64,000 nt of DNA from Schmidtea polychroa (taxonomy: Eukaryota): NCBI GenBank assembly GCA_044892525.1, contig CM097885.1, positions 209,498,001 to 209,562,000 on the forward strand. Reading direction: 5' to 3'. Position numbers and translations under genes: made by a program. The notes beneath the pieces are model-generated. The model saw nothing but the letters and a program-made list of their open reading frames with translations, ran no database searches and had not been told where the DNA came from. This document shows positions 26,140-61,518 of the stretch, one piece after another (within the stretch, counting starts at the first letter, position 1; the number at the start of each line of letters is the position of its first letter).

Positions 26140-26574
26140 TGTTGGCGGGCCGCAGGGGAAACAGGGCTGGTTTAGATGACTATAATGTTGCGTTGTTTTT
26201 TATGTGACGTGCACAATCAAGGTTGAATTAGATGATTTTAATGTTAAACTGTTCTTATGCAGAGTGTAATGGTGAATTTCGTTTGTTGGAGTAGCCTTGA
26301 ATTGAGAAAGAAAATAGATCCGGGAGTACAATCAAAAAAGAGAGGAACCAGGAAAATCGGACACAGACCTTCTATCGGCAGTCATTGAACCCAAGGAAGT
26401 ACTGGACAATTATAGTATACAGAGTATGCTCACGTTTTGCTAGTACTACGACCCTTGATACATTACCAACGTTGATCACTCAACGGGTATCAAGTGGTCA
26501 AATTTCAATTGTATTCTCGGTTACGCTAAAAATAGCACGACGAGGTAAATTGTTTGATTACATTTAACCCATCA
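26140..26574 (+). mobile_element. Short member (E4, 435 bp) of the giant LTR-like family retaining the 3' structured region
   Basis: 26340-26540 aligns with 54320-54511. It ends TAACCCATCA (E3 ends TAACCCACCA). A possible start TGTTGGC is at 26140, but no TSD is seen. Confidence 0.65.
26358..26539 (+). ncRNA. Conserved structured RNA motif, copy 2
   Basis: CCTTCTATCGG at 26368-26378. Stem GTACTGG/CTAGTAC encloses hairpin AGTATAC/GTATGCT. Bulged hairpin CTTGATAC-ATTA-CC-AAC-GTTGA-TCAC-TCAAC-GG-GTATCAAG. Confidence 0.75.
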
Positions 26575-43400: not shown

Positions 43401-46400
43401 AAATTAATGTGACATTCGTTTTTTGTCTACGACAAATGCGATAATGATTTCTTTTGGCAACAACAGTTGGAAAATTCATGCCACAGACTTGACATTGTCT
43501 CTTTTCCAAATCCACAATGGAGATTGATGGACAATATACAGATCAAATGGGTATGGCTGTCTCAGTTTGGTTTGATTCGTAACATCCGGGTGAATATCTT
43601 GAAGAAGAAGAAGAACTGACAGATGGCAAAAATGACGACCTGCTGGTATCGGATCCTTCGGAGGCAATGCATTAATCCCAAATTCAGTGTGCTCAAAAAC
43701 ACGAGAATATGGTAAAAACCTGTTTGGTAAGATTTTTCGAAATTGAGGATAGCGAAATGGTTTGCAGCAAGATACATTTGTACACTTGACCGCTTGAAAC
43801 ATGTACTTTGAACTCATTATGTGCTCCGACCGCCACAGTAGGTTTGCAACTTCTTCTCTGGAAACTCGCAGTGTTTCATTGCCTTCTGGTATTGGAATAG
43901 CCTCCGCATACACTGCATTTTTGTCGATGACTGTTTTACTCCATATAGATGCTAAGACATTCATGGAGTTAAAGAAATTTCTTTTTTACAATTCTTTGTC
44001 GATTATCTTTCCACTTGCACCAATATGTGAACCAAAATGTTCGTGATCAAGAACCAACCCACAAATGTCATGGGATAGAGGAGCCATTCTACGTTCACAG
44101 GGATTATATGCACTGTAGCCTCTTGAAGTAATAAAAACTATGTACATGTCAAGATCATATTCCAGAAAAAAACATTAATCGCCTCTTCAATAACTTTCGG
44201 ATACCGTGCATTCTCGTCTGGTCCTCCATCTGACCGTGACACCCAAAATGGTTTAACATTTCCGGATCTCAAACCGTTCATCATCAATTATGTGGCGTAT
44301 GTCCGTGCTATGACTGTAGGCATTTGATGTATCATGCTTTTCTGAACGGATTGCTATATAAGTTGGCCCAGTGTTCGATATCCCGGTTGCCTTGTCGCCA
44401 ATAATGTCATCGTTGATAGTTAGGAAGGCGTACACTGAAGGTATCAATTTATGTTTCTCGGCTACCACCATCGTGATCTGGCAATTTTACTCGGTACTCT
44501 GTACTCATCATAACTGGCTGCTCTTTACTTGCTGCTGCAATTCCAAGAGCTATTCTAGCTTTATCGTCTGGCGAAAATAGCATCGTGTTTTGTGGACCAT
44601 TAAGTGTGCATAGTTCCATAACGAGCCTGATAGCATCCAAACCAAACTGGACATCTTCATTTTTCTTCCGAGCACTGAATTGGGCTTTGAAAAGTTTCAC
44701 CGGAACCGTTTGTACATGTCTTTTGCCTTCATTTGTATTCCAGCGACGTGATATCAGACGTCTGTATACAGCAGTTCTTTCAATACTGTAACCTTTTTCA
44801 TTGAGCATTAGTGTCAGATCATCTAAAGTTTTCGGACATTGCAATAATTGAGATCGACATCCAGGATCAGCGACAGCTTCATTGGAACAAACGAGTTCCC
44901 AAATCACATTGAGAAGATCTGGATATTTCTGCTCCTTTCTGGGACGCCCAGGTTTTTCAAGTAATGTTTCACCTGCAGCTGCGGATAATTTTTGGTATTT
45001 TTCTTTTTTTTTCAAGCGAGATTTCTGTGCTCGAGAACGGTTAAGTCGAAGAGTTTGAATAGCTTGTTGGATTTTCTTTTTGCTAGTCTCCAAGTTCTTC
45101 AATTCCTTTCCTACAGCTTCTGAATCACCTAAACCTTTCTGTTGCTTTAATACAAGGAATGATATGTTGGGATTTACTTCATCCAAACGTTTTTGTTCTC
45201 GTATTTCTGCTGGTGTATGACGTTTTATATCTTCCAACACATTCTGCTTTTCAACCTCGTTTCTACTCGATTCACTAGTGATGATTTTCGATTCGTCGAC
45301 AACTGAAGTATGACTGATTGTTTTGTCCATAACTGTCGCAATAACAGTTCACCAACAGATGATTCAACAGACACAGATAGAACCTCCTGCAATAATGTTT
45401 TCTTTGCTGGAATGTTTGTCCAATAACTCAGATTCTTTGCTTTTCGTTTTGCTACAACCATTCTTAAATCGTTCAGTTTCGTTTGGTTCTGATTTAATTC
45501 ATTCCATAAAGCCTGCGCTTCTGTCAGCTGATCGTGCTTTGATATGTCCGGATGTGCAAGAGCATACGTATTCACTAGATCTTGGTATAGATCTGGCATT
45601 TTGTTAACTTTACTTTTCTTGAACATGTCTATAGTCATCCGATATTAAAAAGTTTTCTTTAACATTCTAATTTAATGATTTATTTATATTAAAATATAAA
45701 CTAATAAATACAACTAGCGTGACGTCACGTTCAGCTCAACTCACCCACCCACCCACGTCACGTTTCGTCACTTTTGAAGGAACCCACCCACCCACCTTCA
45801 AGTGTGACGTAATTATGCAATGACCCCATATACAATGTATTTTTCATTTTCATAATGAAACTAAACTTTTAAATGTGGTTGACTTTTATATGCGGCCCGC
45901 CTGCTTTCTAGAAATTAACCATGTGGCACAGATGCTGCAAAAGGTTAAACCCTCACGATCTAGATAAAATAGTTTCAAGTTTAAAATTTTTCTTTTCTAA
46001 ATACAGAGTAACACAAATAAAATTTAATACAAAAAATCTTTCATTACTAAGCTTTGCCTGTTTTATTCTGCAAAGCATATATTTATATCCGGGAAAATCG
46101 TTGTATACTCGAGTTTTAACTGTTATTCTATTCAATCTAGATTTTTCCTAGATACTCGTTGATACAAAGAACATTAAGTATTTCACAGCTCTCGCATTAA
46201 TCTCTGGAAATTTATTTATAATTTGAAGTCAAAAATGATGGCAATTTTTTTTACTTGCAATTGAGAAGTATCGCATAATTCTTCAAAAGGATTTTGAATT
46301 CATATATTTCGGATAGGTTTAGGATATTGTTGTAGCCTGTCCCAGAAATATGGAATATTTTGACAACTTCGCAGAATCCAGTTTAAGGAAGTGTATACTA

Positions 46401-49400
46401 AAAGCCCGCATTATTTTATAAAAATATTAAAACAATTTCCCACATTTAAAGATTCTTAAATTGGAATTTTTCAGATGTTTTGAAAAAAAATCCAATAAAT
46501 TGTTTTTGAATTTTTACTCAAACAAAAGTTTGATTGCACGCGAGTGGATTTGATGATATTTTACATCGATTTTAGGCCGGGGTTCTAATACATGGATTAG
46601 CCCCTTAGGTTGTGCCATGTATACATGTTTAATTCCGATACGTATTCGTTCCAATCTCGGAAATTCAATGAGTCTCATTCAGCACATAATGGCTGTGAGT
46701 ATTATCGAGGCTATAAATTTTCTCTGTTGGTTTGAAGTGAGTAAAAATTCAACTTTTATACCTTTAATTTCAGATAAGTAATTAAAATACCGAACCATTA
46801 AACTTCAATTTTTTTCCATTGAATAATTTTACACCACATAAATAATAATATAAAAACTAAAAGAATTAAATGCGAGAATAATAATCACCACTGTCTGTTT
46901 AGTAGCCACCTTCTCCTGGCGATAATATATAATACGAAATATTTTAAATTTCGCGAATTTTTTTTTAAGTGCAATATTGATTTTGAGTTCAAAGTGCAAT
47001 TTTGACTATAGTCAGATGCTCTTTTTATTTTTGACTTTAGTCAGGGAACTTTTAGAGAGGGTGCTCTCTTTTCACACTCTAAAAAAGAGATAATATTAAT
47101 TTTTGGGTGTAAAGAAATGTAAAAAATGCAAAAAGTGCAATTTTTGTGTGTTTTGATGGTTTGAAATTTTTCAAAAATTGATTTTGTAAAAATATATAGA
47201 TTTTGGAAGAGAACATTCTTTTGACGACAACTTTTACGAAACTCTGAGGAATCTGTAGACAAGGATTTAAAGTTTTTGGACGAGAAAAATTTTTTCAAAA
47301 TATATAGAAATTAAAGACTTTCAAATTTTTTGACCAAATAATTTTTAAATTTTCAGTATAAGATTGTCAAATTTATGAAAAACAAAATTTTTTGAGTCAT
47401 CTTTTAGTCGTGCTATATTGCCAAGGTTTCAGAGAAATTTTAATTTTTTATGTATAGTATGTTCTATAAGGCTAAAAATATTAAAACTTCAAGATACCAT
47501 TAAAAATCAAAATTTCATTATAGTGAATATATTTTTTAATTGACTGTATAAGTTGGCGAATCCACAGAAAACTCATCGTGACTCGTAGGTTGGGAACCGG
47601 TGCTTTACACTTTTAATTTGAATGAATGTTGTATTCGATCAGTGGTTCACAATCCACGGACCGCGGCTCAAAGGTGGGCTTTGACAAAGGATCTGGTGGG
47701 CCGCGATGAAGTCTAGAAAAAGTACAAAAAGTAGAAGAAAATAAAAACTAAATCGGCGTTTACCTCAAATTGAAAGCAGCGGACTATACGGATGCACGTT
47801 GCAGAATTGTAGATTTCTAGTTTATCTATTCTACTCTATCTATTCTAGTAGCACAGTTTTAACAGTGAGTCAGTGTACCGGCTCGGTGAGTGTTACCCGC
47901 GACGACGTCAGCAAACGCATATTGCATTTTAAGCACTGTTTATTTATGTTTATTTGTATATAAACTATAAAAGGATAATAGTTTACATTTCACCGGCAGT
48001 TTGCGCACCTTTTCGGAGATATTTTTATTGTTTTGAGTAAAGTTAGAGTCGTTAGAATTATAGAAAAAATTAAAACGGTAAAACGAAAGAGGTGATGATC
48101 AAGATAACATTTCAATTGATATCTGTAAGAAAACCAAATATACTCGAAAATATTATGTGGAAATTATAAAATACAGTTTCGTACCATCAGAAAATGACGA
48201 AATAGGTGTTAAAGTATCGTACTTGATTGCCCTGAGAATTGCAAAATTAAAGGAGCCTCACACTATTGGAGAAGATCTTATCATGTTAACTGCTATAAAG
48301 ATTTGCGACATATTTTTTGGCTCGAAATACGCTATAAAATTGAAAAGCATTCCAATCTCGAATGACACTGTCAGCAGGAGAATATCTGAAATGTCAGATG
48401 ATATTCTAACGCAATTAACTGAGCGATTACAGTCTACTAAATTTACAATTCAATTAGATGAGACAGGTGATATCGCTGGCGAATCACAGCCACTTGCTCA
48501 TGTTCGATATTGTTGGCAAAATGTTGTGGAAAAATAATTTCTGTTTTACAAGTCATTGCCAGCTAGAACAACGGCGGATGAAATATTTTGAGTTATAAAC
48601 GAAATTTTTACAACTTATGGACTGCTGCAGTGGATGAACTGCGTCGGGGTTTGCATCGACGGCGCTGCAACAATGACAGGTCACAAAAGTGGTGTTGTAA
48701 CCCGCATAAAACAAGTGTCACCTGATGTCGTATACACTCATTGCATGATAGATCGTGAAGCATTGGCTTCGAAAAATTTGAATGAAACTCTGGGGTCTGC
48801 ACTCGATGACTATGTACGTATTGTAAACTTCATTTAAACTAGAACAGTGAATAGTCGACTATTTGCTCAACTTTGTATTGAGGCATATTCAGAACACAAA
48901 CATCTCCTATTGCACTGAGCTATTCGTTGGCTCTCCAGAGGGAAAATTCTTGTGTTGGGCTAGAACTGAATTCTAGACCCAAAATACACATTGTGGCTGA
49001 AATGTGTAGGTACACAGCAAGTAAAAAAGCACCAAGTATAATTAAATATTAAAACCTACACCAAATAAACAATGGTAATTAAACAGAGAAAACAACAAGA
49101 ATAATAAACACACAAATTAAATAAAATTATACAAAAGCAAGAAGTTATGCAAAATCTAACTCAAAAATAACCAAATAGACATAGAATTACCAAAAGCAAA
49201 CTCGAATAACTTAAAAGATGGTAAAAACAGTAAAAAATTCCAGAAAAACCCAGAACATTCCATTAAAATGGCGATGACCATCACAAAAGCCATAAAAGTT
49301 AGAGAAAATAAATAAATTAGTATTAAAAATAATAAATCTTAAAAAGAAATTCATAAAACACCAGTTGGAATAAAAATTAAATTAAAAGTAAAATAGAATG

Positions 49401-52400
49401 TTCTGGAACCGTTCCAAATCCATCATGGACGTCAAATTAACGAAAAATAATTAAAAAATAAAATTTTAAAAATAAAAACAAAAATTATGGCATAAAAATT
49501 GCCATTAAAAATATCGAAATTACAAAATAGAAAATTCTGGAATAAAAAGAATTCGAGTTTGTTTTAATGCATCAATACATACACGTGTACAAAATAGGTA
49601 TATATACTGACACGTTTCAGTCACAAATCATCACTTTTTGCCAATAAATTTTTGTTCAAAGAAAATTTTTGTCCAGGAAACTAGCAGTAAGTAGTTTTCC
49701 TTTTTGGTATTTATTATTTTTCATTAATATTAGTATTTTTATGTTTTAAATGTAAAATTATTTTAATGAATTTAATTAATCTTAACTTTTCATCTAACTT
49801 AGTTTTACCTTTTTGACTAATCAGCGACGTCTTAGTGCGTCGCTGTTTAGTCCTGCATTTAACATTAATTTTAAATGACAATTCACAGGCAGACAAGCAA
49901 TATATTTTATATAAAATTTTTTTTGTTTTGTCATCGGAGGTCGGCCACTTCATGGTTCTACTATGGAGTTGTGTCGATAAAACCCCTCCGCTATGGCTCC
50001 ATATATTTATTTATCGGTCGACAGTGATGTTTCGACCCAACATTACAATAGGGCTTGTCGTAGCGGTCACAGTGGGGCCGTGTAAGCAAGCATTCTTCCC
50101 GAGTTCCAATGCAGCACATATTTAAAATCAACATTAAAAATCTCATACATTACTTCACACTAAGGTCATAATTGAGTAGATCTCAGACCCAAATTAAACA
50201 CAGCAATTACAATTCAGTTAATGTAGTCGGTTAAGACCTCTCCACTTATGCGTCTGTCGAACATCGTTAGTAAATAAAATTTTTTTTAAAAAAAAAAATG
50301 TGAGGATTTTTCTCGGATCTGATTATGATGATAGCATCTCGAAGTTCGACAAGCGTAAAGGATGGAATAGATTCAATTAAGTATAAAACCCCCAACGAGT
50401 AGTATATATCCTTATCTCAGGATTAAAAGGTAGTATTGCCAATACCCAAATCAATCAGGAGTTAGGGTTATATTATAACTTCTTTTATTTTTCATTTATA
50501 AATCAATATCAATGAAGCATTATTATTTTAGAAAATGTAATATCACCAATTATAAACTATTATCGATAAAACCTTTTCAATTTGTAAATAAAACTTTTTA
50601 TGTGGATGTCTATTCAACTATAAACTTATGTCTATTCAACTGTAAAGCTATATTAACAACTATAACATAGATATGCGTGATCCTAACTTACTATTCAATT
50701 CATCCCTCAATTAGGAATTACAATCGAGAAACTCGTATAAAATTGTAAATGATCTTATCGATAAAGGATAAATCTTACTTGAGTTTATATACTAGGTCTA
50801 AACTAAGAGTCTCCCGCAATCGTTTAACTATGAGTGTATACTTGTTAGCTTATATATAAAACATGGATTAAAGGTATAATCTGATCGTTAAACTACTAAA
50901 TATATATTGGTTAAATTATAAAAGGTGATTATAATTATGTATATAATATAAGTCAAAAATATGCTCTAATCATTAAACCATAAGATAAAGATTAGTTAAA
51001 TTATAAATTATGACTATAAACTGTATATAAAATCTAAATCAAAAATATACTAAACTATAAAGTACCTATTAGATAAAAATATAACTACAAATTATTTATA
51101 AAAAATGATATATATAAATTATAAAATAGAATTATAACTTGTATAGAAAGTATAAATTAAAAGTATATTCTGATCATGAATTCTAAATTATATCATAAAA
51201 GATAGTATATATATAGTTATGTATTAATTATATGAGTAGCTAAAATAGAATTATAACTGGTATAGCAAGTATAAATTAAAGGTATATTCTGATCATGAAT
51301 TCTAAATTATATCATAAAATATAGTATATATATAGTTATGTATTAATTATATGAGTAGGTTATTCCTAAAAACCCAAACTACAACTAATTATAGATAAAA
51401 TTTTGATTACCAGAAGATAAACTGTAATTAATTATATATAAACATTGAGCGTAAAATATAAAGTACAATTCATTATATATGAAACTTATCGGTGTATTAT
51501 TCCTAAATAGGTAAATTATGAATAAATTTTGGTTACAAAATATAAATTATAACTAATTATATATTTTGATTATGAAGTACAAAGTGTAAATAATTATGTG
51601 GATTATATAAATATATGGCTCTTAAAAATTTAAATTATAAACGGTGTAAATTATAAATCATGATAGTATATATATATATATATATATGTGTATATAAATT
51701 ATCTAGGTATTCCAAAAGATAGTTATAGATGAATATTAGTTACAGCAGTAAATGATTACACTCAATTTCCGAGCTTTAAAAAGCTCAATTATAGATAGTC
51801 GTATTGCGAACCATTATATACATATTACGAATGGTAAAGATCCCTGCAAAATGGTAATATAGCAATCCGAGATATAAATCTGGAAAATGACAAGTACCTA
51901 TAAGATGCGGTCAAAATTTGTTCTACCTCTGAATCAGGTATTATAATATGACATTCTAAATCACGGGTGTTAAGGTTTCAACACCCGACAATGTCTTAGC
52001 TATTTATACCTCTATTGACTATCAAAATGATTATGGGAGTAAAAATCAGTTGTTAAATTATTTCGCACACAAAGTAGAGATTGACCTACAATGTTCCAGT
52101 GGTGGCCTGTTTAAAAGTGACCTGAGACTCGGATCTTCCAAAAATCTTAGCATGATCGCTCCAGGAATAGGGTTTCTAGAAACCGGTGTCGTTCAAGCAT
52201 AACCTATAAAATCACATCAAATAGGTAATGACAAAGGATACCCTAAGCTCTTATAGAATCAATGGTGACGATACAACGTATGAGTGGAATATGGTCTATA
52301 AATTAATAGACAACTTACTAAATTCCCATAAAACAAAATTCCAAAAACGCCGACGAGAATTGAGGGCAGGTTAACGTTGAAAATCAAAGAAACTTTCCAT

Positions 52401-55400
52401 AGGAGACAGGTCGGAATCATGACCCACTTTCATGTCAAAACCTGAAAGCGCATATACCTGAATTGCTAAAGTTGTTATGAATATATTAGCAGTATGCACC
52501 CCTCGAACGACTTCACCAACGAAGGAGCATTGGAACCCAGTTCCACAATAAACCCGTTCGCCAGCGAAATCTTTCTCTAGGGCTAATTACATCAAAATAG
52601 CATAAGCTGAATCATAACAATCCAGCCTAAATATAATTGCAAATAGAATATATGCCACGATGTAAATAATTATGTAATAATGTTAATTCAATAAAACAAC
52701 CAGATTTCTGTTTTAATTTTTTCTAATAAAAGTTAACCAAACCAAAAATTCGACGATTTGGGAACAACCACGAGCAAAATATAAATTTTCGGGGTACAAT
52801 ATTTCTCTTTTTGGTTACTTACTGCACAGGTAATAATTCGTTAGGATGTTTTCTTCCGATGTTTCTAGGTTGAGGCTATAGGGTGATGATAAGTAACGAC
52901 TCCCCATTTTTGCTATAAATTTGTCATCTAATTCACGACAAGGCACACTATCATCAGTAGGGAGTAACTATTCGCTCGAATCACGGCTTTACGTCTTAGT
53001 AGAATGATAAAAAAGATGAAATTTCAAGAAGAAAATCAGCATTAACCATTTTTATTTAATCATAGAATGTCGCAAGCAAGTGGTCCCGACGAAGCGGAAT
53101 ATAGGCAAATGATAACGCGGCTCCGGACCCGGTACATCTGGTACCGGATCCACGATTGGAATCGGGGGTTGGACCTAGATAATTATGGTCCGGTCATTCG
53201 GAGTGGCCCAGAGCCCGATGCCCCGGCGTGGGTGAAGGTAGAGCCCACTAACAACGTGCTCCGGGAAGCCCGCGATCGAGCGGCCGATGAGGTAGTAGAG
53301 GCCCAAAAGCGGCTGAGGAGACTCGAGCTCCAACTCAAGGCCGAAACGTTGGGGATAGCTCTTGAAGAGCTGGAGGAGACCGATGCCCCTCCACGAAAAC
53401 GGGGGAGGCCCCGCAAGAACCCGGCCTAACTTATCGACAATCGCGGCCTGAATAAAACGATTTTTACTGATCTTATTTAGTGATATTTTAGTAACATAAC
53501 GAATTGTATTTCTCTTTTGTTTATCAAACATAATCTATCGTGTAGTAATGCAATAAATTATATTTTTTTTTATTTATACTTTGGGCTTTACAGCTAATGG
53601 GGCGTATTCATAATTGAGGTGACCCTTTTCTCATCACCCACTTATAAATTCCATGCATGTACTCTAACCAACTTTGCGCACCAGAAGGCGAATGAGGGGA
53701 TTTATTATTATTTTCTTCAGTGTACCAGTTATTGGAAAACCTACGAAAGGACCGCGAACAGGCCCAGCAACAATCCGAGGGTCTCCGAGGTCGGGTCGAA
53801 AAACTCAAGCTGAAGTATCGAGAACTCCAAGGTACCTGGTTCAGCCCAGCCGAGATGAAAAAACAGAAGACCCACATCTCGCAACTCCAGACCCAGGCAG
53901 AGCAAGACCAACTCGAGATTCGGGCGTTGAAACTACAAGTACGCTCTCTCGAAAGCAAATTGAACGAAAAACTCATACAAGACGCCCTCCAAGAGCAGAT
54001 CCGCCCTCTCCAGGTGGAGCTAGCCAGAATATACCCACCAGCCCCGACAGGCAAGCCGAAACGTAAACGGCTCGGGCGGAATACCCGCGACAAATTGAAA
54101 AGGGCCTGGCTGGCCGAGCAGGAGAAGTTGAAAGAGGCTGGGGCCAATCCACGTTCCCAAAAGACGTTCGAGAATGCGACCCTCATGAATAAACCAACTC
54201 TGTAAAACAGTAGTAATTTAATAAGTGATTCTGGTTGTGTAATAAATATATGATCGAACTTTGCGTTGACTTAAACCGAAAGGATTGGTAGAAAAGCGTG
54301 TGGGAAAACAATCTCGACGAGGGACCGAAACAAATCGGACACGTGCCTTCTATCGGCGTCCGTGAACCCATCGCGTACTCGACAATTATAGTGCCTCGAT
54401 GCGCTCACTTTTTGCGAGTACTCAACCCTTGGTACAGTACCAACGTTGATTGCTCAACGGGTACCAAGCGGAAAAACAATGTTGTATTCTGGGTTACGCT
54501 GGTAACAGCACTTAAACATTCAACCACCAGTAACCCACCACTTGAAAGAGTGTTTGAACTTCGTTTGGAATTGTTACAGTTTTTGGCTTTATTATAATTT
54601 TGTGATAAACCCTTTGAAATTGTTGAATCCAATTCTGCATTAGCACTTGAGTTATAATTTATTTGTGTTTGTTTAGTCTGGAAACGTTTCCAAGTTATTT
54701 GTCTCAGAGATATTCAAAGAGATCAATAAAAAGTGTAAAGTGTACACTATACACGAGTAACAATTGTAACAAAATTAATATTTAATAACACTTAAAAAAA
54801 AGGGTTTTCAACGAAAATAATATTTATATAAAAAATAGTAAACTAGTCATAGGATATTGAATTTTGGTAATATTTAATTTTATACTTTACCCAAATTTTT
54901 AGAAAGATTTATTAAAAATAAAATGGCCTAACGATGTCTATTGGAATCAACATGGAAAAATAGCTGGAATAATATCAAAAGCTGTTACACAAGATAATTA
55001 TTTTTATTGTTTTTTAGGTGGGTACCATATATAAATGTAATTGTAATAATGAATTATTAGGAGTTGGTATAAATGTGTCCAATAGTGAACCAACGGTTTG
55101 TATCCATGATATCATTAAGTCATCTAGTAAAGGCGAGGTTACCAATATAAATTACCCTTCAGTGGAAAAAGTTATTGCTCATGTTTTGACTAGATTCGAA
55201 AACAATATTGATCTAATTCAATCTACTGGAAATGAAATTGAGAATTTTAAAAGCAAATATTACAAACATTGGATGCACAAGTATATACATTGATAAAGTA
55301 AAAATTTCAAAACTATTCAATAGAGATCAGGTTGTTACGGTTAAAAATGGTGAAAATAGTGTAAAAGGATCAATAATCGGTATTGATGATTTTGGGTTTT

Positions 55401-55495
55401 TACAAATGATGCCTCATGATAACTCTGAGATTGTTACATTACATCCCGACGGGAATACTTTCGATATGATGAATAATCTAATTATGCCTAAATAA
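40407..55495 (+). CDS. HLCS: Holocarboxylase synthetase / biotin--protein ligase, 9 exons, ~524 aa
   Basis: Exons 40407-40691, 40742-40900, 40952-41068, 41125-41405 ([19 protein letters not shown]), 41450-41514 ([13 protein letters not shown]), 46576-46736 ([21 protein letters not shown]), 54903-55017 ([16 protein letters not shown]), 55061-55280 ([19 protein letters not shown]) and 55324-55495 ([28 protein letters not shown]). All junctions are GT-AG and phase-consistent, and all biotin-ligase signature motifs are present. The start codon could alternatively be at 40485. Confidence 0.95.
42699..45954. mobile_element. hAT-type MITE that hosts the Zator insertion
   Basis: CAGTGGCCAACCCGCAGGCC on the left and TGCGGCCCGC...AAAAGGTTAAACCCTC on the right, with an 8-bp direct repeat ACGATCTA on both flanks. 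Confidence 0.5.
42882..45827 (-). mobile_element. Full-length Zator-superfamily DNA transposon (2,946 bp); transposase frameshifted
   Basis: 24-bp TIRs GGGGTCATTGCATAATTACGTCAC with a 3-bp TSD ATA. Minus-strand transposase pieces: [75 protein letters not shown], and a C-terminal CQVC..H..IC zinc finger. Confidence 0.88.
49599..49692 (+). promoter_or_regulatory. Predicted TATA box and first 5' splice site of E3
   Basis: TATATATA at 49599, conserved in E2 as TATAAATACTGAC. Consensus donor CA|GTAAGT at 49686/49687. Confidence 0.5.
51122..51360. repeat. Tandem duplication (~120-bp unit x2) in the AT-rich island of E3
   Basis: TAAAATA(A)GAATTATAACT..GTATAAATTAAA.GTATATTCTGATCATGAATTCTAAATTATATCATAAAA.ATAGTATATATATAGTTATGTATTAATTATATGAGTAG repeated twice. 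Confidence 0.9.
53067..53429 (+). CDS. Element-encoded ORF A (120 aa): short coiled coil and C-terminal AT-hook
   Basis: Intact GC-rich ORF ending [13 protein letters not shown] (RGRP AT-hook core). AG acceptor at 53064-53065 just before the ATG; AATAAA at 53451. Confidence 0.7.
   Translation: MSQASGPDEAEYRQMITRLRTRYIWYRIHDWNRGLDLDNYGPVIRSGPEPDAPAWVKVEPTNNVLREARDRAADEVVEAQKRLRRLELQLKAETLGIALEELEETDAPPRKRGRPRKNPA
53721..54205 (+). CDS. Element-encoded ORF B (~161 aa): coiled-coil protein with basic C-terminus, entered through a splice acceptor
   Basis: Intact GC-rich frame with heptad-like L/Q/E/K content, [10 protein letters not shown] and KPKRKRLGR. Preceded by TTTATTATTATTTTCTTCAG| at 53720; AATAAA at 54241. 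The in-frame start seen on the genome is only GTG. Confidence 0.72.
54336..54511 (+). ncRNA. Conserved structured RNA motif, copy 3
   Basis: CCTTCTATCGG at 54346-54356 within CGGAC/GTCCG. GTACTCG/CGAGTAC encloses AGTGC/GCGCT. Bulged hairpin CTTGGTAC-AGTA-CC-AAC-GTTGA-TTGC-TCAAC-GG-GTACCAAG. Confidence 0.75.
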
Positions 55496-61022: not shown

Positions 61023-61518
61023 CTGATTGTTTTGTCCATAACTGTCGGCAATAACAGTTCACCAGCAGATGATTCAACAGACACAGATGGAACCTCCTGC
61101 AATAATGTTTGTCCATTAATTCAGATTCTTTGCTGTTCGTTTTGCTACAACCATTCTTAACTCGTTCAGTTTCGTTTGACATGTAGATGGTTCTGATTTA
61201 ATTCATTCCATAAAGCCTGCGCCTCTGTCAGCTGATCGTGCTTCGATATGTCTGGATGTGCAAGAGCATACGTATTCACTAGATCTTGGTAAAGATCTGG
61301 CATTTTGTTAACTTTAATTTCCTTGAACATGTCTATAGTCATCCAATATTAAAAAGTTTTCTTTAATATTCTAATTTAATGATTTATTTATATTAAAACA
61401 TAAACTAATAAATACAACTAGCGTGACGTCACGCTCAGCTCAACTCACCCACCCACGTCACGTTTTGAAGGAACCCACCCACCAACCTTCAAGCGTGACG
61501 TAATTATACAATGACCCC
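61023..61518 (-). mobile_element. Partial second copy of the Zator element (5' end)
   Basis: Near-identical to 45316-45827, including the TIR, with small internal deletions. Confidence 0.9.

Follow-up and report, generated by a model that had tools for sequence, protein, structure and literature searches.

A solo long terminal repeat of a giant Burro-type element in Schmidtea polychroa and its two selected open reading frames

How can a mobile unit of 5.6 kb that ends like a long terminal repeat (LTR) and lacks gag and pol come to hold two open reading frames (ORFs) of its own? The question is raised by a stretch of 64,000 nucleotides from the planarian Schmidtea polychroa (assembly GCA_044892525.1, contig CM097885.1, positions 209,498,001 to 209,562,000, forward strand), which is referred to here as the window. 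The original prediction on this DNA left two possibilities, namely the solo LTR of a giant Gypsy element with accessory genes, or an independent non-autonomous unit moved in trans. The former is borne out, as near-identical pairs of the repeat flank gag-pol in the same genome. It is practically certain that the unit represents a solo LTR from a Burro-type element, a known giant family, and, judging from the pattern of substitutions, there can be hardly any doubt that its two frames, ORF A and ORF B, are real selected genes. The reading as a whole, in which the two genes would be expressed by alternative splicing from the LTR promoter and would encode nuclear regulators, has a probability of about two in three.

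Ends, parent element and family of the repeat

The ends and the target duplication were predicted exactly. The unit begins with TGTTGGG at 48953 and runs to CCCACCA at 54540, with CTTG on either side (Table 1), and its two ends form an inverted repeat with one mismatch in 7 positions. Excision was also said to restore the frame of a hAT transposase gene. A single frame does cross the empty site, where the window resembles the RWLSRGKVIQRVYELR read by related transposases of the same genome (L279), but stops elsewhere in the gene make this restoration local only. The hAT label is that of the original prediction; Pfam returned nothing for two fragments of the gene and a sub-threshold, unrelated match for a third.

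When the genome (781 Mb) was searched with each end of the unit, first-look candidates numbered 2,584 and 2,604, figures that are not copy numbers; 40 candidates were scored. Several scored matches are same-strand pairs about 30 kb apart, and the unit is 98.6-98.9% identical to both LTRs of the elements at G000:C1:20.63-20.66 Mb and C4:57.48-57.51 Mb. Paired LTRs were found in all five full elements examined (E1 to E5). E1 measures 36,556 nt and E2 36,710 nt, with 99.7% and 99.5% identity between their 5' and 3' LTRs and an ATAT duplication each; the internal region accounts for 25.4 kb of a total of 36.6 kb. E4 and E5 have shorter (4.9 and 4.3 kb) and divergent LTRs, and interiors that are 93-97% identical. 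Past the 5' LTR and an 8-nt spacer lies a primer site of 18 nt complementary to the 3' end plus CCA of the genome's tRNA-Pro(TGG). The interior then encodes, in order, a RING protein, the polyprotein and six further ORFs, which include TRAF-like and BIR+RING proteins. The polyprotein spans about 4,690-4,790 codons, and its frame is broken in 5/5 elements examined; Pfam recognises in it three zf-CCHC zinc knuckles, MATH, a viral fusion glycoprotein (E 3e-68), protease, reverse transcriptase, RNase H, integrase and ankyrin, with the Gypsy/Ty3 domain order (PR-RT-RH-IN).

Whole LTRs from many lineages (n = 59, 4,317-6,217 nt) were classed as 5' by a primer site after them and as 3' by a polypurine tract before them. 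This gave 13 5' LTRs, 14 3' LTRs, 29 solos with a 4-bp duplication and 3 unexplained copies, and none of the 29 solos has a target duplication reaching 5 bp. Eighteen copies resemble the window copy by at least 98%. Three full elements account for 6 of them with their LTRs, and the other 12 are solos; a perfect 4-bp duplication is present in 11 solos, and two of the 12 share their flanks and represent one duplicated insertion. The ratio of 12 solos to three paired elements could suggest a 5.6-kb unit that moves alone as a non-autonomous element by means of the family's integrase in trans. Such a unit is nonetheless most improbable, as the solos have neither primer site nor polypurine tract and show the same 4-bp duplication as the full elements, and long LTRs readily yield solos by recombination. 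Because the same sequence is the paired LTR of full elements, the idea of an independent unit is left without support. The solo LTR was likely left by recombination between the two LTRs of an element.

Further observations were made on members of the family. Two solos with identical flanks in opposite orientation (L013, L014; G000:C1 255.04 and 251.12 Mb) represent a segmental duplication or an assembly duplicate, and two others (L164, L169) sit within (AAT)n microsatellites. Element E3 contains a nested insertion; its pol region (G000:C4 about 59.317-59.331 Mb; L070, L071) holds a 13-kb Maverick/Polinton-like insertion with an A32 packaging ATPase and a double-jelly-roll capsid. The gene for the primer tRNA, tRNA-Pro(TGG), forms a tandem array on G000:C1 from 130.90 Mb (L249-L251) with a 475-bp period, and its T-arm pattern has 1,580 matches genome-wide. 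The window itself holds, at 26343-26538, a fragment of this family's terminal LTR segment that is old (79% identity).

The anatomy of the full elements matches that of Burro1/GYPSM1 in every feature visible to Pfam, the likeness being to the published description and not to a consensus sequence. Burro1/GYPSM1 of planarians exceeds 30 kb, with an interior of up to 25 kb and a 4,873-aa polyprotein that comprises three CCHC knuckles, MATH, a BCL2-like segment, env between gag and pol, and ankyrin; a BIR is also described (PMC6431247, with Jurka 2007 and Grohme 2018 given as sources). The elements seen here share with it the size above 30 kb, the interior of about 25 kb, the huge polyprotein, the position of env, the BIR and coiled-coil genes and the thousands of candidates. 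They differ in the length of the polyprotein, and the parts of that description consulted include no LTR genes, start site or splicing scheme (PMC6431247). The BCL2-like, Ubi/SUMO-like and dUTPase-like segments of Burro1 were found with HHpred (PMC6431247); here, Pfam did not report them at E <= 0.01. According to the original prediction, LTRs are usually well under 2 kb. A precedent for the length of the repeat exists in the Ogre elements of plants, which have LTRs of 1.9-6.5 kb and extra ORFs of unknown function (PMC6431247). Ogre thus resembles the present family in the size range of the LTR and in having additional ORFs, but its extra ORFs are described as internal, and it is described as lacking env (PMC6431247).

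Selection on ORF A and ORF B

Of 111 copies, 107 keep ORF A open at 115-122 codons, and 89 have an ORF B that stays open over at least 140 codons; both counts are inflated because most copies were selected by protein similarity. E4 and another copy, L197, were found via their DNA ends and hence are free of this bias. Between the window and E4, the proportions of synonymous and nonsynonymous differences (pS/pN) are 0.77/0.16 for ORF A and 0.83/0.23 for ORF B, while the DNA surrounding the ORFs does not align. The comparison of nonsynonymous and synonymous rates (dN/dS) across copies, which had been proposed for both frames, points to purifying selection on both and not to neutral evolution: among non-saturated pairs of hand-picked representatives, the median is 0.18 for ORF A (range 0.06-0.37, 13 representatives) and 0.14 for ORF B (range 0.08-0.63, 12 representatives).

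The distribution of variants among copies tells where this selection acts. With codons of several changes excluded, the ratio of nonsynonymous to synonymous changes in ORF A is 101:48 for singleton variants vs 82:145 for shared ones (P 2.5e-9), and in ORF B 77:43 vs 94:147 (P 7e-6). Variants unique to one copy are near neutral and the shared ones mostly silent; therefore, selection is on replicating lineages and not on inserted copies. The window copy would be intact because it is young, its LTR being 98.9% like that of E1. The prediction of two intact accessory genes holds in that both ORFs are selected, but the first start codon that ORF B itself offers is codon 45. The 44 codons ahead of this Met are under selection as strong as that on the remainder.

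The LTR proteins could, alternatively, serve the host as domesticated genes instead of the replication of the element. Intact copies are numerous, and the BIR-RING (IAP) gene of Burro1 is reported, second-hand, to protect stem cells (PMC13465017); BURRO1 transcripts are reported in smedwi-2 knock-down animals (PMC8532177). However, individual loci are not preserved, because variants confined to one copy are near neutral, with stops among them, and the selection lies on the shared branches of lineages. A role for the host is hence quite improbable.

Two observations concern the frames themselves. In both LTRs of E3 (L069, L073; G000:C4:59,303,218-59,303,577 and 59,346,997-59,347,356), 15 of the 16 changes of ORF A relative to the nearest copy are A-to-G; they cluster within about 190 nt, form the sole such case among 107 copies and likely reflect ADAR hyper-editing of an RNA that was fixed by reverse transcription. 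A 220-codon antisense frame over ORF B was considered and rejected, as it is stop-free over 417 nt in two of 12 lineages and has 4-5 stops in the E4/E5 group.

Predicted start site, splicing and exchange between copies

The TATA box noticed in the original prediction belongs to a TATA/initiator motif that closes the highly conserved first ~670 nt of most whole LTRs (Table 1). A donor lies about 55-70 nt past the initiator, with A at position -1 in all 50 copies where a donor-like motif was found (related copies, not independent ones) and with variation at -2 to -4. On the acceptor side, YAG (Y, pyrimidine) stands 1-2 nt upstream of the start of ORF A in 110/111 copies, and for ORF B the sequence at the beginning is YAG|TG in 109/111; these splice signals are near-invariant and their flanks variable. 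The final A of the leader, when joined to TG, gives an ATG in the frame of ORF B. The same arrangement recurs in the interior, where six of seven accessory ORFs start 0-3 nt past a YAG and the seventh past an AAG. Of the 8 accessory ORFs that start with ATG, 7 are preceded by a YAG at 0-3 nt, whereas background ATGs have one in 11 of 119 cases (P 4e-7). These motifs make it probable that transcription starts near LTR position 667 and that the transcripts are cis-spliced from the leader.

Under this scheme, the 68-nt leader exon would be spliced to one of about ten acceptors with one ORF behind each, that is, ORF A, ORF B, the RING protein, probably gag-pol, and the six 3' genes including TRAF and IAP; the start codon of ORF B would be created at the junction A|TG. 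In each of the five elements, the frame of the polyprotein stays open over ~100 codons ahead of its first Met, with an AAG 5 nt before the Met (L066:1-300, end of L065); a spliced mRNA may be needed for gag-pol as well. As an analogy only, the adenovirus major late unit has a single promoter, a non-coding leader and many alternative acceptors with one ORF each, but it belongs to an unrelated DNA virus and the scheme here is predicted from sequence alone.

The same solo LTR and genes could also be read through spliced-leader (SL) trans-splicing, which would release the ORFs from a polycistronic transcript as in flatworm operons. SL trans-splicing is described in Schmidtea, where operon candidates were defined by gaps of at most 300 nt, and acceptors are often common to cis- and trans-splicing (PMC12582326), and it could serve some acceptors here, where gaps of about 80-150 nt separate the 3' accessory ORFs. 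It leaves, however, the conserved A|GT donor 68 nt past the initiator unexplained. Moreover, flatworm leaders generally end in AUG, and this AUG would not be in frame with either ORF B or ORF A (acceptor-to-ATG distance 1-2 nt in ORF A); release by trans-splicing is thus unlikely.

A start near position 667 agrees with the history of the repeat. First-strand transfer between different RNAs would leave an ancestry change at the cap site. Across seven lineages, mean divergence is 0-0.05 per site at -90 to -1 and 0.13-0.41 once the A of TCAGT is reached, with a step at this base from about 0 to 0.2. For example, the copies L139 and L197 have zero mismatches over the 200 nt that lead up to the initiator, their differences beginning at +3, and between E1 and E4 the last upstream difference is at -27 and the next from +6. 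At informative sites, the window copy agrees with E4 in U3 and with L139 further downstream. The start is placed at the initiator because ancestry changes at that base, as first-strand transfer would leave it.

The genes were initially likened to nef and sag. HIV nef, MMTV sag and foamy-virus bel/tas are accessory genes that overlap the LTR, are expressed from spliced RNAs and are made from the 3' LTR; nef and sag lie in U3. The likeness stands for genes inside an LTR and, as predicted here, for expression from spliced RNAs; it probably fails for position, since those genes are in or run into U3, whereas both genes here lie wholly within the LTR and past the putative start, 3.4-4.1 kb downstream of it. 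The parallel would be closer if U3 were long enough to include the ORFs, so that the 3' LTR expressed them as it does nef, sag and bel, and if transcription truly began within the conserved final 250 nt. The last 245 nt do show conservation and an R-U5-like structure, the distances in the ORF region track the 3' interior better than the 5' interior, and about 4.9 kb would be an unusually great length for a minus-strand strong-stop DNA. But the conserved TATA/initiator and the base-sharp ancestry change are at ~667, with no comparable promoter motif seen near the end, and so long a U3 has a low probability.

Several points weigh against the preferred reading of a start near position 667, cis-splicing and two genes for regulators, besides the choice of most of the 111 copies by protein similarity. 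The TATA-initiator spacing of 20 nt is shorter than the textbook one, and most LTRs carry an ATG within the leader. An in-frame upstream ATG is available to ORF B in 21/89 copies, and splicing is thus not needed for it there. A reverse-transcribed DNA copy of the spliced leader-ORF B product was sought with 0 matches, and the functions of the proteins are based on short motifs only. In 15 paired elements, the post-start LTR tracks the 3' interior (rho 0.63-0.72) over the 5' interior (0.19-0.25), a comparison bearing on the length of R, with few independent lineages and no permutation test; this runs counter to the simplest expectation of strand transfer.

Between the start and the final 250-450 nt, the LTR behaves like a module that copies can exchange. 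Copies L139, L178, L180 and L197 are within about 1% of each other in U3 and in the 3' interior; just after the start they are 20-25% apart (except L180 vs L197, 3.5%), and in ORF A 6-34%. Exchange between co-packaged genomes is sufficient to explain the swapping of modules. A more speculative and rather unlikely picture is that the Burro LTR is a self-contained two-gene unit past its start (4-5 kb of R/U5), with one start codon made by splicing, and that solos are expressible regulator cassettes whose transcripts serve as a swap reservoir via template switching. Such a reservoir would explain ORF A alleles up to 34% apart in elements ~1% apart in U3 and the 3' interior.

Further features, predicted proteins and meaning

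The remaining features claimed for the unit were also recovered. The AT-rich island is present, the two ORFs are GC-rich (ORF A 60%, ORF B 53%), an AATAAA follows each of them, and the terminal 245 nt fold (z = -2.9). An AATAAA at 49643 was rejected as a poly(A) signal for want of conservation. In the structure at 49786-50112, 98.7% of cells are paired and 6/54 pairs have compensatory changes (22 copies), counts that come from the alignment from which the structure was derived and that related copies inflate. By analogy, this candidate element sits where retroviruses keep signals meant for unspliced RNA only. Rfam gave no family match for the structured RNA of the LTR.

Table 1. Features of the solo LTR and its insertion site (window coordinates)
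Feature	Position	Strand	Remarks
Decayed DNA-transposon (hAT-like) transposase, LTR inserted in it	48082..54597	+	frames and relatives in own genome
Left target-site duplication CTTG	48949..48952	+	exact copy
Solo LTR, 5,588 nt, Burro1/GYPSM1-type Gypsy, parent 36.6 kb	48953..54540	+	98.6-98.9% identity to full-element LTRs
Putative U3 (promoter part)	48953..49618	+	81-97% conserved per 150-nt bin, 12 lineages; history uncoupled from rest of LTR
TATA-like box (49599-49606) and initiator-like TCAGTC, A at 49619 as putative +1	49599..49622	+	51/59 whole LTRs
Predicted 68-nt non-coding leader exon, ends in A, then donor GTAAGT at 49687	49619..49686	+	donor conserved
Conserved structured RNA just within predicted intron	49786..50112	+	z = -4.0; candidate packaging, strand-transfer or regulatory element
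AT-rich island, 17.8% GC, 119-nt tandem duplication 51122-51358	50851..51750	.	poorly alignable across lineages
Acceptor AG and ORF A, 120 aa, two predicted helices, C-terminal AT-hook-like RGRP	AG 53064-53065, ORF 53067-53429	+	open 107/111
Two AATAAA after ORF A (53451, 53552)	53451..53557	+	AATAAA or ATTAAA between ORFs in 12/13 lineages; weak in AT-rich DNA
Acceptor AG and ORF B exon, 160 full codons, long predicted helices, basic KPKRKR motif	AG 53719-53720, exon 53721-54205	+	open 89/111
AATAAA after ORF B	54241..54246	+	AATAAA or ATTAAA in 10/13 lineages; absent in E4/E5 group
Conserved structured terminal U5 segment	54296..54540	+	in full-element 5' LTRs followed by 8-nt spacer and tRNA-Pro primer site
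Right target-site duplication CTTG	54541..54544	+	exact copy

Elsewhere in the window, exon-like pieces of a probable host gene, which we take to be biotin-protein-ligase-like, lie at 54900-55495, just downstream of the interrupted transposase. Another repeat has two copies, 95-97% identical and 15.7 kb apart, at 45338-45827 and 61048-61518, and the segment 56500-59400 contains minus-strand integrase-like fragments and a 45-nt repeat with copies 3.1 kb apart.

As for the proteins, AT-hooks of the HMGA type have an R-G-R-P core between basic flanks. The tail PRKRGRPRK of ORF A is conserved in at least 95% of 107 copies, and the AT_hook match to ORF A has a Pfam score of 12.3, below the cut-off of 17.4. 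The structure models are usable for secondary structure only, because their predicted template-modelling scores (pTM) are 0.30 (ORF A) and 0.39 (ORF B); ORF A is predicted to have two helices and the conserved basic tail, and ORF B long helices and a basic motif. Word-indexed searches with the single proteins and the ORF B alignment, limited to proteins of near length, found no homologues of either outside the own genome. A hidden Markov model of the ORF A alignment had 0 matches among 1.84 billion representatives. The ESM Atlas gave no usable match for ORF A and generic coiled-coil leads below 0.9 for ORF B, and Foldseek, run with the ORF A model alone (pTM 0.30), gave none at E <= 0.001 in PDB and BFVD. 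ORF A may bind AT-rich DNA via its AT-hook, and ORF B may be a basic coiled-coil nuclear protein; together they might raise LTR transcription, or promote the read-through and export of unspliced genomic RNA, in the manner of Tat/Rev or Tas, with selection acting during the replication of the element. By this analogy, a role of both as regulators of the element is possible, though nearer to doubtful than to probable.

The giant family is already published. No account of Burro LTR genes, or of their place past the promoter, was found in the literature searched, outside which lie Grohme 2018, Lee 2026 and Fig. 2A of PMC6431247, which may annotate the ORFs. Burro1 is an LTR element of record size and is reported to support planarian stem cells, and the expression of about ten genes from an element of 36 kb is not described in the literature searched. 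For this, the sequence predicts a concrete scheme with start site, donor and acceptors, and it adds two orphan proteins under strong selection. If the scheme is true, even a solo LTR would contain a promoter, a leader, ORFs and poly(A) signals, and solo LTRs, which are usually seen as non-coding remains, could be protein-coding here. Coding solo LTRs would matter for gene annotation and for RNA interference (RNAi) and PIWI-interacting RNA (piRNA) studies of the Burro-type family.

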